NCBI RefSeq assembly: GCF_001677475.2
Contig: NZ_CP015229.1
Reading direction: 5' to 3' (one strand)
Length of the DNA stretch: 64,000 nt
Origin: Escherichia coli
Lineage (GTDB): Bacteria; Pseudomonadota; Gammaproteobacteria; Enterobacterales; Enterobacteriaceae
The notes beneath the pieces are model-generated. The model was not told the origin of the DNA, made no database searches, and worked only from the letters and a program-made list of their open reading frames with translations. Positions 7,275-64,000 of this stretch are shown one piece after another; position 1 is the stretch's first letter, and each line of letters begins with the position of its first letter. The translations under genes and the position numbers were made by a program.

Positions 7275-8003
7275 TCATTCATAATGTGTTTTCACCGTTC
7301 GCTTAGGCATAAACTGCCGGAACAGTTCCCTGCTCTTTAATGGTTTACCGCCAAGATACGGCTTAAGCGCCATGCGGGTAAAGCGTTTCGCGGCGCGTAG
7401 TGTGTCTGCGTCAGGAAATTCCCGCGCGTTTAACGCTTTTAACTGCCTTCCGGTGAACGTTTTATTGTCGATAACGACGCTTGCGATAAACCCTTTTTCT
7501 TCGCGATAACGATACGTCATGGTGTCATCTACCGGCTCGCCGCTACCCGCGCAATGGGTAAAATTGACGCCATAGCCCAGATGCCCGAGCAGTGCCAGTT
7601 CAAAGCGGCGCAGCGCGGGTTCTGGCGTACCAGTGGCACCTGCAAGTGACTGAATGCAGTGCAAGTAATCGAAAAAGAGTTCAGAGAAGCGCGTCTCGTA
7701 TTCCAGTACGCGGGAGAGAAGTTCGTTGATGTACAGACCGCTGTAAAGCGTGATACCGCTTAATGGCAGCGCCAGCGAGACAGCTTCAGCACTGCGCAGC
7801 GTTTTGACTTCGCCACGCCCGCCAAAACGTAGCAAGAGAGGGGTGAAAGGCTGTAATGCACCTTTCAGAGTAGAGCGTTTAGAGCGTGCGCCTTTGGCAA
7901 CCAGACGCACGCGACCCGATTCCTCCGTGAAGACGTCCAGCATCAGGCTGGTTTCGCTCCACGGGCGACTATGCAATACGAATGCGCGCTGCCAGCCTTC
8001 CAT
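7275..8003 (-). CDS. recO: DNA repair protein RecO
   Basis: 242 aa from [20 protein letters not shown]. Confidence 0.95.
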
Positions 8004-8134
8004 CATACTCGTCGCCTTTCAAGTTGCAGGTGCCTTGGCTGCACCCGTTCACCCTGGTCACTTACTTTAGTAAGCTCCCAGGGATTCACGGTCTTGCCGC
8101 CTTCCTGCACCTCGAAAGTCATAGAGTATGCTAA

Positions 8135-9747
<1,613 letters not shown>

Positions 9748-55625: not shown

Positions 55626-55709
55626 TACAGTGGCGAACTCCGGTTCGCCTTTCTTATCGCCGCCTTTTAGGATTCCATCAATTCCTTCCTTTTACTTCAC
55701 AATGCAATA

Positions 55710-56351
55710 ATGACATTTCAATTATTCGGAAAGGATATCAATGTTATGTCAGAAGATTATGTAATTGAGTGGGATAAGGATTTTGAAGACGATCTCAACG
55801 TTGTCGCCAGCGTGTTTTTCCCCCACAAGCCAACGCTATGGTCTGGTATCGTCTCTCAACTTGCCACCACTCCTGAAATCTTTGAAGACGAAGATGAGGA
55901 CGAATATGGATTGCAAGACGTTCTCGATTGTAGCGGTGGCGATTTAGGAAATGACGCATTGGGGCAAGCATTTTTACAAATCCTACGCATCGAAGGATTA
56001 ATCCATATTGTTGACTGGAAAGGCGAAGAAGAAGATGGTGAGCTGGCTAATTTTGCTGCTGACCGCTTCTACGATCTGTGTAAAGACCTGACAGCCTCAG
56101 AGACATTACGAAGTCTGCTTATCGACATAACTCAGGAAGATGAAATTGCAGATGCCTGCGAAGATGGTGATCGTTACCTTGACGAGATCTTTGGACGCAT
56201 TCAGGACCAGCTTAATGAACGGGGCTACCAAATTTTCAATCTGAATGAAGGAACAGATAGTTATAACGTGGCCGTTCTGCCAATGAACGAATATAAAAAA
56301 ATAGATGATTTCAACACGCCGTGGCTGGAAGTACAGGATTTTTTAAGCTAA
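55710..56351 (+). CDS. hypothetical highly acidic cytoplasmic protein (no recognised family); ORF sits in the yfjD-grpE spacer
   Basis: Clean 213-codon ORF with no competing frame; likely start ATG 55746 (AAGGA 10 nt upstream, 201 aa); hand count 29 Asp + 22 Glu vs 7 Lys + 6 Arg; no TM segment or signal peptide; appears AT-rich by eye relative to flanking genes. Confidence 0.6.
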   Translation: MTFQLFGKDINVMSEDYVIEWDKDFEDDLNVVASVFFPHKPTLWSGIVSQLATTPEIFEDEDEDEYGLQDVLDCSGGDLGNDALGQAFLQILRIEGLIHIVDWKGEEEDGELANFAADRFYDLCKDLTASETLRSLLIDITQEDEIADACEDGDRYLDEIFGRIQDQLNERGYQIFNLNEGTDSYNVAVLPMNEYKKIDDFNTPWLEVQDFLS

Positions 56352-56377
56352 AAAAATGGCCGACTTCGCGTCGGCCA
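56350..56377 (-). terminator. rho-independent terminator after grpE (bidirectional hairpin shared with the acidic ORF)
   Basis: Hairpin TGGCCGAC-gcgaa-GTCGGCCA followed by a T7 run on the minus strand, 8 nt after the grpE stop. Confidence 0.75.
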
Positions 56378-56385
56378 TCAGATAT

Positions 56386-57009
<624 letters not shown>

Positions 57010-57098: not shown

Positions 57099-57977
57099 AT
57101 GAATAATCATTTCAAGTGTATTGGCATTGTGGGACACCCACGGCACCCCACTGCACTGACAACACATGAAATGCTCTACCGCTGGCTGTGCACAAAAGGT
57201 TACGAGGTCATCGTTGAGCAACAAATCGCTCACGAACTGCAACTGAAGAATGTGAAAACTGGCACGCTCGCGGAGATTGGGCAACAGGCTGATCTCGCGG
57301 TTGTCGTTGGCGGCGACGGTAATATGCTGGGCGCAGCGCGCACACTCGCCCGCTACGACATAAAAGTCATCGGCATCAACCGTGGCAACCTGGGTTTCCT
57401 GACCGACCTTGATCCCGATAACGCCCAGCAACAGTTAGCCGATGTGCTGGAAGGCCACTACATCAGCGAAAAACGTTTTTTGCTGGAAGCGCAAGTCTGT
57501 CAGCAAGATTGCCAGAAACGCATCAGCACGGCGATTAACGAAGTGGTACTTCACCCTGGCAAAGTGGCGCATATGATTGAGTTCGAAGTATATATCGACG
57601 AGATCTTTGCGTTTTCTCAGCGTTCCGATGGCCTGATTATTTCGACGCCAACAGGTTCCACCGCTTATTCCCTCTCAGCGGGAGGTCCGATTCTGACACC
57701 GTCTCTGGATGCGATTACCCTGGTGCCCATGTTCCCGCATACGTTGTCAGCACGACCACTGGTCATAAACAGCAGCAGCACGATCCGTCTGCGTTTTTCG
57801 CATCGCCGTAACGACCTGGAAATCAGTTGCGACAGCCAGATAGCACTGCCTATTCAGGAAGGTGAAGATGTCCTGATTCGTCGCTGTGATTACCATCTGA
57901 ATCTAATTCATCCGAAAGATTACAGTTATTTCAATACATTAAGCACCAAGCTCGGCTGGTCAAAAAAATTATTCTAA
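57099..57977 (+). CDS. nadK: NAD kinase
   Basis: 292 aa; GGDG motif ([14 protein letters not shown]). Confidence 0.96.
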
Positions 57978-61863: not shown

Positions 61864-62226
61864 GGGGCTGATTCTGGATTCGACGGGATTTGCGAAACCC
61901 AAGGTGCATGCCGAGGGGCGGTTGGCCTCGTAAAAAGCCGCAAAAAATAGTCGCAAACGACGAAAACTACGCTTTAGCAGCTTAATAACCTGCTTAGAGC
62001 CCTCTCTCCCTAGCCTCCGCTCTTAGGACGGGGATCAAGAGAGGTCAAACCCAAAAGAGATCGCGTGGAAGCCCTGCCTGGGGTTGAAGCGTTAAAACTT
62101 AATCAGGCTAGTTTGTTAGTGGCGTGTCCGTCCGCAGCTGGCAAGCGAATGTAAAGACTGACTAAGCATGTAGTACCGAGGATGTAGGAATTTCGGACGC
62201 GGGTTCAACTCCCGCCAGCTCCACCA
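61864..62226 (+). ncRNA. ssrA: tmRNA (SsrA), 363 nt, ending CCA
   Basis: 5' GGGGCUGAUUCUGGAUUCGACGGG, tag-coding region ...GCAAACGACGAAAACUACGCUUUAGCAGCUUAA, 3' GGGUUCAACUCCCGCCAGCUCCACCA. Confidence 0.97.
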
Positions 62227-62424: not shown

Positions 62425-62997
62425 TTACGTAACGTCAAACGCTCTGATTGAACGCAAATCATCCAGATTATTCAGTTGTTCCTTCATCTCGCGCTGGCGT
62501 TCGTGGATTTTAAAGCCCTCCGCCACCATGGCCACCATCATGGCATCGTTCAGCGCAATAAGTTTCTCCCTGGTCAGTATGACGTTGTTATTATCCGCAT
62601 CAGTCCAGAAAAAACCATCCGGAAGCAGTCCGGCCTGCGCTGTTGCAACCACGGGCGCAAGGCGTGACTGCGAGGTTTTTCCGCCATCAAAACGACGGCC
62701 ATCAAACGTGAAAATAAACTCAACGTTTTCCTGACTGTCGCGCCATGCCTCAATTTCCCGCCTTTTGGCATCCTTTGCCGCTGCAATAAGTTCCGGCGTG
62801 ACGGTGAACGGGGCGATTTCGCCCCATTTCCCGCTTTGCAGCTCCTGCCAGACATGCTGGCCTGTCGGGGCCATATCATCCTGTATGGCGGTATACAGGA
62901 CGAACTCCGTTTCACCTTCAAATAACACCTCGCAGTCAACCGCACCATTTTCAAGATAATGCGCGTTTCTGATGCCTTTCACCGCTCTGATTTTCAT
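62425..62997 (-). CDS. tfa: phage tail fibre assembly protein (Tfa-like chaperone)
   Basis: 190-aa ORF starting MKIRAVKGIRNAHYLENGAVDC, resembling lambdoid/K-12 cryptic-prophage Tfa N-termini; AAGGAA RBS; lies 14 nt downstream of the stf stop. Confidence 0.8.
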   Translation of the reverse strand: MKIRAVKGIRNAHYLENGAVDCEVLFEGETEFVLYTAIQDDMAPTGQHVWQELQSGKWGEIAPFTVTPELIAAAKDAKRREIEAWRDSQENVEFIFTFDGRRFDGGKTSQSRLAPVVATAQAGLLPDGFFWTDADNNNVILTREKLIALNDAMMVAMVAEGFKIHERQREMKEQLNNLDDLRSIRAFDVT

Positions 62998-63011
62998 GTC
63001 TTATTTCCTTA

Positions 63012-64000
63012 TTACTCAATGCGTACAAAAAGACCGATATAGCCACGCGTTGTATCGTGACTAATGCGGGTCCCCGAAAGCGCCGTGTAACGACCGGGGA
63101 AGTTGTATTCACCAGCACCGCCAATCACAACCTGCGGTGAGGATGCGTATGTCCCTGTATCGCTAACCCGTGCACTCATAGCCAGAGGGCCAAGACGGGA
63201 ACCCGGCACAATATCACCGAGCCCCAGAGACGCATCTGCACCAAAACTCTCCCCCTGATATGCCGCCATAATCGGCACACCAACGGCCGGGTATTTATAA
63301 TATGAGCCTGAGCCCGCCATCCTGGACAGCAGGTACGCCAGTGAATCTCCGTCGTATACAACTACCCGCGATGACATGTTCCAGCTGTTATCGCTGTCGT
63401 TGTACCGGTACTGCATATAGTGAATACAGTGTTCACCCTGATAATACTGGTTGTAGCACATCAGGGTTTTAAATTTGCGGACTGTGTCGGATTCACTGTT
63501 GGCGTACGGTGACCACATCACATCAATAATGCCGTTAAATTGCGTGGTACCGGTAAGCAGTTGCGAGGAGTCTGTAATACTGACCGCATACCGCCCCGGC
63601 GTGACTTTCTTCAACCACTCAACGAAATCAGACAGCCCCTCAAACGCCAGAGCGTCAGTGCTGGTGAATGCCTGTCCAAACCCATACATCCCGGACAGGG
63701 CCAGCCTGCCCGGTGTGCGGTCACGGATATCACTCTGGGGTTCCATCGTCGCAGCCGCGTTCAGCTCAAGCTCCGTGCGCATGGCTTCAGCCGTGTCATG
63801 CGCCAGTAATGCGCGGCCCTTCTCTGACAGCAGAGACAGTGAGGCATTCCCGTCTGTATTGAAGTACAGAAGATTATCTGCCCGTTGCGTCAGTGCGCTG
63901 ATTGCCGTTAAGACGTCATTAAGCGGTTGTTTGCCTGCCAGCGCGTTTGTGATTGTCGTCGCAAAGTTCGGGTCATTGCCCAGCGCCGCTGCCAGCTCGT
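63012..64000 (-). CDS. stf: phage side tail fibre protein (Stf-like), C-terminal ~329 codons; 5' end beyond window
   Basis: Minus-strand frame open from the window edge (hand translation 63783-63998 has no stop); contains the motif ALAGKQPLNDVLTAISALTQRADNLLYFNTDGNASLSLLSEKGRALLA, similar to the conserved shaft segment of lambda/Rac/e14 Stf; followed by tfa. Confidence 0.8.
   Translation of the reverse strand, partial: ELAAALGNDPNFATTITNALAGKQPLNDVLTAISALTQRADNLLYFNTDGNASLSLLSEKGRALLAHDTAEAMRTELELNAAATMEPQSDIRDRTPGRLALSGMYGFGQAFTSTDALAFEGLSDFVEWLKKVTPGRYAVSITDSSQLLTGTTQFNGIIDVMWSPYANSESDTVRKFKTLMCYNQYYQGEHCIHYMQYRYNDSDNSWNMSSRVVVYDGDSLAYLLSRMAGSGSYYKYPAVGVPIMAAYQGESFGADASLGLGDIVPGSRLGPLAMSARVSDTGTYASSPQVVIGGAGEYNFPGRYTALSGTRISHDTTRGYIGLFVRIE

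Follow-up and report, generated by a model that had tools for sequence, protein, structure and literature searches.

What is the small, extremely acidic protein encoded between yfjD and grpE in some strains of Escherichia coli, and is its gene a recent insertion or an old resident? The question arises in a 64,000-nucleotide stretch of E. coli DNA (NCBI RefSeq assembly GCF_001677475.2, contig NZ_CP015229.1), hereafter the window, in which the gene order is ffh(-), ypjD(+), yfjD(+), open reading frame (ORF)(+), grpE(-), nadK(+), and recN(+). A preliminary description, made by reading the letters alone, had taken the ORF for a strain-variable insertion into conserved backbone and had suggested either a DNA mimic or an orphan immunity protein. 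The analysis reported here indicates that the gene is almost certainly genuine: a single-gene, dispensable, old resident of the yfjD-grpE slot, with its own ribosome-binding site, that encodes a compact, soluble, acidic alpha/beta protein of the DUF6630 family and that has been recombined as a cassette between strains and genera. As to function, we tentatively favor the view that the DUF6630 protein is a stoichiometric, immunity-like neutralizing binder.

The ORF, open for 213 codons from 55710 to 56351 on the plus strand between yfjD and grpE, exists as first described. It appears to be a real gene, beyond a chance ORF, because the product matches Pfam DUF6630 (PF20335; i-Evalue of 6e-12, residues 37 to 187) and the ratio of nonsynonymous to synonymous substitution rates (dN/dS) is low. 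The ATG at 55746, earlier named as the probable start, is the true start codon: the 12 in-frame codons upstream of it contain stops in the orthologs from E. whittamii, Salmonella, Superficieibacter, and a metagenomic enterobacterium (L006), and the N-terminus MS(E/D)DYVIEWD is kept in all orthologs compared. Upstream sequences from nine orthologs show that an AAAGGA/GGGAA motif is likewise kept across genera. The coding region has a GC content of 43.6% and a third-position GC content (GC3) of 41.6%, against 51% and 62% in yfjD, about 51% in the flanks, and 50.8% in the whole window, and the AT richness that had been judged by eye is thus real. In each of the seven hosts with values for both genes, the DUF6630 gene had a lower GC3 than its neighbor, with a deficit of about 20 points or more in six Enterobacteriaceae and about 3 points in Budvicia. 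Family and gene are already cataloged in Pfam and RefSeq, and the window gene adds a new allele to a family of uncharacterized function. RefSeq names the orthologs "DUF6630 family protein" or "hypothetical protein" (WP_001287920, WP_001287917, and WP_001287919), and the Salmonella ortholog WP_001287928 is a "putative cytoplasmic protein." The protein had been called uncharacterized, and it may still be so called: Pfam gave DUF6630 only and no characterized homolog, searches of NCBIfam, PADLOC, and PHROGs with the window protein gave zero matches, and a literature search found nothing on DUF6630, PF20335, or the RefSeq accessions.

From the K-12 gene order the gene had been supposed to vary between strains and to be absent from K-12, and the genome counts agree. 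Of 5426 complete E. coli genomes, 303 carry the 760-bp interval, chromosomal and in single copy every time, so that about 94% of E. coli live without the DUF6630 gene, which is dispensable. In K-12 the yfjD-grpE spacer is 54 bp long and contains no gene, and this spacer sequence was found in at least 4177 E. coli genomes. The "empty" state is uniform in length, since all gene-less members of a 60-genome sample, drawn across the ranking of complete E. coli genomes, measure 648 to 657 bp from one fixed flank endpoint to the other. Replacement starts with the first base past the stop codon of yfjD and extends to that of grpE. The GrpE protein ends in ...VAKAK (196 amino acids) in gene-bearing strains and Salmonella and in ...VAKAKA (197 amino acids) in K-12-type strains, and the last four grpE codons (window 56386 to 56400) carry synonymous changes between the two strain types; the differing 3' end of grpE means that allelic replacement extends into the coding end of that gene. 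The K-12 spacer showed no significant similarity to any cassette, and it is therefore not a recognizable deletion scar of the cassette. Because spacer and cassettes are unrelated, the sequence does not show which way the event went.

The proposal of an insertion into otherwise conserved backbone was not supported by comparison with other taxa and is probably wrong. The same slot, yfjD-X-grpE, holds an ortholog in E. whittamii (83% amino acid identity to the window protein), Salmonella Senftenberg (about 79%), Superficieibacter electus (67%), the metagenomic enterobacterium L006 (64%), and a Salmonella enterica strain (L004; 59%), and in Entomohabitans teleogrylli (41%) the gene follows directly after yfjD at a contig end. 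Close homologs are also encoded by E. fergusonii and Escherichia sp. E4742, and the orthologs are intact across genera as ORFs of 199 to 201 amino acids. The slot is therefore old, being occupied by an ortholog in several other taxa. Loss from most E. coli, together with allelic replacement by homologous recombination, would fit the pattern better than a recent insertion. Re-acquisition of the cassette in E. coli may also have occurred, because the cassette moves between genera. No mobile-element sequences flank the window gene.

The gene differs sharply from its neighbors in its rate of change. Between the window and E24377A, which belong to the two main E. coli allele classes, the gene shows a synonymous divergence (dS) of 0.75, yfjD one of 0.05, and grpE one of 0.08. 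The dN/dS ratio (Nei-Gojobori) is 0.14 to 0.15 between E. coli alleles and 0.08 to 0.12 against the Salmonella and L006 orthologs, and it stays between 0.08 and 0.15 in every comparison, including those with a dS of >2. The gene appears, then, to evolve roughly 5 to 10 times faster than its neighbors, yet under purifying selection. Such selection largely refutes one explanation of the locus, that it is a decaying, functionless remnant of an old acquired gene that is drifting to loss. Absence from about 94% of E. coli would suit a remnant, as would a persistently low GC3 and the existence of frameshifted, IS1-associated, and truncated copies, but the constraint holds even at the largest dS values, the ORFs remain full length across genera, and the product combines a confident fold prediction with a motif that is invariant across phyla. 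We consider decay very improbable.

The alleles themselves fall into at least two deeply diverged gene-bearing classes in E. coli, plus mosaics. The E24377A type is the common allele, and the window protein is about 82% identical to it at the amino acid level. The window allele belongs to the rarer main class: six genomes carry an allele 98.7% identical in DNA sequence and four one about 94.6% identical, and with the remaining 293 gene-bearing genomes at about 84 to 86%, only 10 of the 5426 exceed 90%. Sliding identity between the window and E24377A is 97 to 100% in yfjD and 89 to 91% in the upstream spacer, falls to 78 to 80% from 55800 to 56299, and returns abruptly to 100% at 56300. Besides mosaic alleles there are a frameshifted copy and truncated copies, and strain ZH177 has an IS1 in the upstream spacer beside a copy whose annotated coding region is cut to 588 nucleotides. 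Between genera the contrast of cassette and flank can be reversed: E24377A and Salmonella Senftenberg are 94 to 96% identical in the cassette and about 83% in the flanks, whereas two Salmonella strains with flanks 98 to 99% identical share a cassette only about 63% identical. These contrasts indicate that the alleles are far older than the backbones of their hosts and cross genera; the DUF6630 protein tree also disagrees with species relationships. To judge from the alignments, homologous recombination in the conserved flanks has moved the gene as an allelic cassette, among E. coli strains as well as between Escherichia and Salmonella.

The product is as acidic as had been claimed. The earlier hand count is exact for the 213-codon form, which has D29, E22, K7, and R6, and the 201-residue product has D28, E22, K6, and R6, or 50 acidic against 12 basic residues, giving a net charge of -38 and a pI of 4.05 and including the runs EDEDEDE (residues 47 to 53) and EEEDGE (residues 94 to 99) that had been pointed out. 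Likewise in keeping with the preliminary description, the protein shows no transmembrane segment (Kyte-Doolittle hydropathy averaged over 19 residues peaks at 1.31) and no signal peptide, and it is predicted to be cytoplasmic and soluble. Acidity is common to most family members, and the Enterobacteriaceae group is the most extreme.

Charge of this order had suggested an anti-restriction DNA mimic, the acidic surface of which would mimic the backbone of DNA and titrate DNA-binding proteins, restriction enzymes or nucleoid proteins among them. T7 Ocr and ArdA do share with the window protein an extreme negative charge, a small size, and a cytoplasmic location. Proteins of that type are encoded on incoming mobile DNA, however, and the searches place the DUF6630 gene elsewhere. 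A tblastn search of 50,697 phage records gave zero matches to the DUF6630 protein, and enterobacterial and distant-subfamily alignments found no relatives in 2.9 million viral contigs. The enterobacterial "plasmid" matches were two Salmonella records only, NZ_LN868944.1 and NZ_CP110658.1, and two distant members searched against plasmids returned the same two records plus one partial Streptomyces match. NZ_LN868944.1, labeled "plasmid 2" (L017, 728 kb), carries ffh-ypjD-yfjD-X-grpE-nadK-recN-bamE and is evidently a chromosome fragment mislabeled as a plasmid; the match in NZ_CP110658.1 (272 kb) is of the same kind. The gene is thus not borne by phages, viral contigs, or true plasmids, and this absence from mobile elements weighs against an anti-restriction DNA mimic. 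Some DUF6630 members, moreover, are not acidic, and we found no likeness in fold or sequence to a known DNA mimic. We therefore regard mimicry as improbable. The sole hint of a mobile-element setting in the family is a distant member (L030, 377 to 3376) that lies between two ORFs resembling a TnpB/OrfB-type transposase (498 amino acids) and a KfrA-N-like coiled-coil DNA-binding protein. Separately, a very short contig in a Streptomyces cahuitamycinicus assembly (L021, NZ_POUC01000996.1; 413 bp, coverage of about 1) encodes a fragment with 77% identity to the E. coli protein and is almost certainly enterobacterial contamination of the Streptomyces assembly.

Structure prediction gave a more specific view of the protein. 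The AlphaFold2 model, built from an alignment of 15 orthologs, has a predicted local distance difference test score of 89.5 and a predicted template modeling score of 0.87, and it describes a compact alpha/beta domain with nine helices of at least 4 residues and a small sheet. The fold appears to be novel in these predictions; sequence-profile searches of the PDB with narrow and broad alignments returned nothing relevant, and no solved structure was found. The matches of a Foldseek search of AFDB50, nearly all with the name DUF6630 or "cytoplasmic protein," belong to Proteobacteria, Bacteroidota, Firmicutes, Actinobacteria, and a single archaeon. Structure comparison supports a fold shared with other DUF6630 members at the level of the models, with a DUF6630 protein of Pedobacter duraquae ranking first (score of 15.5), an unnamed Elizabethkingia protein second (9.8), and a DUF6630 protein of Paenactinomyces guangxiensis third (8.8). 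The fourth was a "PoNi C-terminal domain-containing protein" (8.2; 122 aligned residues, 11% identity), a score that falls in the gray zone.

The family signature, [IVL]DWxGE ... GxDxY, is represented in the window protein by D90, W91, G93, and E94, by F149, and by G169, D171, and Y173. Across a 21-member alignment no variation is seen at E94 or D171, conservation reaches at least 90% at D90, W91, G93, and F149, and the signature residues hold among family members down to about 17% identity. In the model strand beta2 ends in DWxGE, and the beta3-beta4 hairpin contains GxDxY. A set of residues such as this could belong to an enzyme or to a small-ligand or metal binder serving as a niche-specific metabolic or physiological accessory, in which W91, F149, and Y173 would join the carboxylates D90, E94, and D171 to build a catalytic or cation-binding pocket. 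The near invariance of polar and aromatic residues at such low identity, the compact and confidently predicted alpha/beta fold, the housekeeping neighborhood retained across genera, and the absence from mobile elements would all be in order for such a protein, and the motif fits it almost as well as it fits an immunity-like binder. Yet the searches revealed no likeness to any enzyme fold or family, no conserved metabolic partner genes lie nearby, very fast evolution with deep allele classes is unusual for an enzyme, and the extreme net charge is left unexplained. On balance we judge an enzyme or ligand binder unlikely.

A profile search of 1.84 billion representatives yielded only 44 proteins at an E value of ≤0.001, many of them fragmentary, and a word-indexed homolog search with a broad alignment added nearly nothing further. 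Among the variants read from the sequences are signal-peptide or membrane-anchored members (P0072 and P0077), members with C-terminal Cys-rich tails (P0078 and P0080), an 801-amino-acid protein with two DUF6630 copies preceded by a proline-rich linker (P0071), and two with an extra C-terminal domain of about 80 residues (P0074 and P0075). Pfam reported DUF6630 only on the two fusions tested; the extra domain of P0074 and P0075 resembles in its sequence pattern a ribosomal L7/L12 C-terminal domain, one that Pfam does not detect. Members that bear a signal peptide, are membrane anchored, or are tandemly duplicated are also known in immunity families.

Among the scans for genomic contexts, one of genome contigs gave eight loci, and one of metagenome contigs with the distant-subfamily alignment gave a single locus. 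In three Budvicia-type loci (L013, L024, and L025, at about 7800 to 8550) the gene lies between recR and htpG. Other members lie in housekeeping settings: beside an ATP-binding cassette (ABC) transporter operon with moeA/moeB-type genes, taken to be gsi-moeAB; between genes for a LysR-type regulator (by our own reading) and putative Fe-S proteins; and between a LysE-family exporter gene and a gene for a multicopper oxidase, followed by folA (dihydrofolate reductase). Downstream of one signal-peptide member are two uncharacterized genes and then an ankyrin-repeat gene. No partner gene is conserved across the contexts examined.

The Budvicia htpG gene is a second chaperone neighbor, and because of it we considered that the protein might be a proteostasis or heat shock accessory tied to adjacent chaperone genes, grpE in Enterobacteriaceae and htpG in Budvicia. 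Two independent contexts, yfjD-X-grpE and recR-X-htpG, do lie by chaperone genes of the sigma-32 regulon. Against this, no sigma-32 promoter lies upstream of any ortholog: a search of seven upstream regions for CTTGAAA-N13-15-CCCCATNT gave best scores of 8 to 10 of 14, equal to shuffled sequence, while the controls scored 13 of 14 for grpE and 14 of 14 for Budvicia htpG, which has a perfect promoter in the X-htpG spacer. The gene is also convergent with grpE and not cotranscribed with it, four other contexts have no chaperone neighbor, about 94% of E. coli do without the gene, and the association was spotted post hoc. We give a heat shock role only a slim chance.

A single relative stands in a setting of direct interest for interbacterial competition. 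P0041 (34% identity, L015) lies at the tail of a VgrG/DUF4123-adaptor/fragmented-effector island, next to an IS3 element. The order in L015 (1 to 7500) is the end of a VgrG gene, a small ORF that includes Cys, an adaptor gene of DUF4123/Tla1-like type, an effector gene in fragments, an uncharacterized gene for about 300 amino acids present as two copies in tandem, an uncharacterized gene for 182 amino acids, the DUF6630 gene, and the IS3 element. The tandem genes are a putative immunity duplication, and the many short ORFs on this contig suggest sequencing frameshifts. NCBIfam and Pfam, run on the neighbors in L010, L014, L015, L026, and L028, made no toxin or immunity assignment, the sole relevant match being the weak Tla1/DUF4123-like adaptor.

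We come back to the immunity-like binder. According to this reading the DUF6630 protein would act stoichiometrically, by binding or neutralizing. A basic partner protein would be captured through the negative surface and the invariant acidic-aromatic site formed by DWxGE and GxDxY, the most plausible partner being an incoming nucleic-acid-targeting toxin from competing bacteria. An orphan immunity-like gene would then be kept or lost according to which competitors a lineage meets. The reading is favored because of presence/absence polymorphism, ancient alleles, exchange between genera, low GC, the lone gene, the one relative in a type VI secretion system (T6SS) island, and the gray-zone PoNi_C score. 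A solitary gene with variable neighbors, deep allele classes, and presence/absence variation is the pattern seen for orphan immunity genes, and the position of P0041 in the VgrG/DUF4123 island after tandem small genes is in keeping with it.

Known immunity systems provide both likeness and difference. PoNi proteins (DUF1910/DUF1911; PoNi_N/PoNi_C) confer immunity to PoNe DNase toxins, which they bind; a PoNi gene stands directly downstream of about 90% of PoNe toxin genes, and the authors raised the possibility of orphans among the PoNi genes (Jana et al. 2019, PMC6688995). DUF6630 differs from PoNi in that none of 21 members gave a sequence-profile match and the structural score lies in the gray zone, and PoNe-PoNi adjacency is unlike the window gene, which has no toxin neighbor. 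Compared with the orphan immunity genes of the T6SS, contact-dependent inhibition, and Rhs systems in Enterobacteriaceae, the DUF6630 gene has the same presence/absence polymorphism, diverged allele classes, recombination, inter-genus exchange, low GC, and lack of an adjacent toxin. It is unlike them as a lone gene in a fixed housekeeping slot with no recognized cognate toxin. Orphan immunity genes usually cluster in arrays near toxin loci or on islands.

Several observations weigh against an immunity-like function. No toxin gene adjoins the DUF6630 gene in the window, where the lack of an adjacent partner had already been remarked, or in about eight other contexts. A Pfam scan of 21 members reported DUF6630 only and no Imm or PoNi model. 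The T6SS-island context is a single case on a fragmented metagenomic contig, several genes away from the effector. A phylum-spanning polar motif and lasting occupancy of a housekeeping slot could just as well mean an enzyme, a ligand binder, or a role in host physiology. The orphan immunity suggestion of the preliminary description is the one we tentatively favor, on thin evidence. A more ambitious form of it, that DUF6630 is an unrecognized immunity-like family with a distant fold relationship to PoNi, and that in this core-genome slot interbacterial warfare keeps deeply diverged alleles common to several genera, mosaics, and empty sites by balancing or frequency-dependent selection, seems to us quite doubtful. 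The rest of the probability belongs to something else.

The DUF6630 gene sits between the yfjD and grpE terminator hairpins (Table 1). The upstream hairpin is seen in gene-bearing alleles in the alignment. The sigma-70-like candidate is no better in match count than shuffled sequence, and its hexamers read as poorly kept in the E24377A allele. The downstream hairpin, which begins 3 nucleotides past the DUF6630 stop codon, folds at -16 to -19 kcal/mol with a z score of about -3. It had been described as a terminator shared with grpE, and half of that is borne out: the hairpin is real, and only on the minus (grpE) strand does it score as an intrinsic terminator, because the plus strand has no U-tract, although it may also halt plus-strand transcription. 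A scan of Rfam gave one match, a subthreshold isrD at the same hairpin, which probably reflects the hairpin alone.

Table 1. Features of the yfjD-grpE interval, in window coordinates
Feature	Position	Strand	Details
Variable cassette, yfjD stop to grpE stop	55626..56388		Junction alignments, K-12 annotation, sliding identity, mosaics
GC-rich hairpin then TTTCTT, probable yfjD terminator	55632..55649	+	Terminator scan; fold -13.1 kcal/mol, z -1.96
Putative weak sigma-70-like promoter, TTCACA-18-AATTAT	55696..55725	+	Scan: 1 found vs 1.9 expected
Ribosome-binding site, AAAGGA	55730..55735	+	10 nt 5' of ATG 55746
Coding sequence, 201-aa DUF6630 family protein	55746..56351	+	pI 4.05, net charge -38
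grpE intrinsic terminator, 10-bp-stem hairpin then T-run	56355..56379	-	Terminator scan and fold

Two further observations concern the surrounding backbone. In nadK (window 57300 to 57700) identity to SCU-172 and E24377A drops to 89 to 93% in places, and dS against K-12 is about 0.20, compared with 0.04 to 0.06 for yfjD and grpE; by its sequence this dip looks like a second, separate recombination tract in the backbone of the window strain. Farther along, the transfer-messenger RNA gene ssrA (tag ANDENYALAA) occupies 61864 to 62226, and the minus-strand ORFs directly after it (62425 to 63782) resemble phage tail-fiber assembly and tail-fiber C-terminal genes, which suggests a prophage or island integrated at ssrA. 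K-12 has CP4-57 at this site, with content that appears to differ from that of the window.

At present the gene is a cataloged hypothetical protein and mainly a candidate for experiment. Even without a function, it provides a clean natural marker of homologous recombination, with sharp breakpoints, mosaics, and alleles shared between Escherichia and Salmonella. If the immunity-like reading is true, a DUF family with members in many bacterial phyla would gain a function, and E. coli and Salmonella would offer a tractable single-gene example with natural presence/absence and allele variants. That reading would also mean that a defense-type polymorphism is kept within a housekeeping gene cluster and not on an island.

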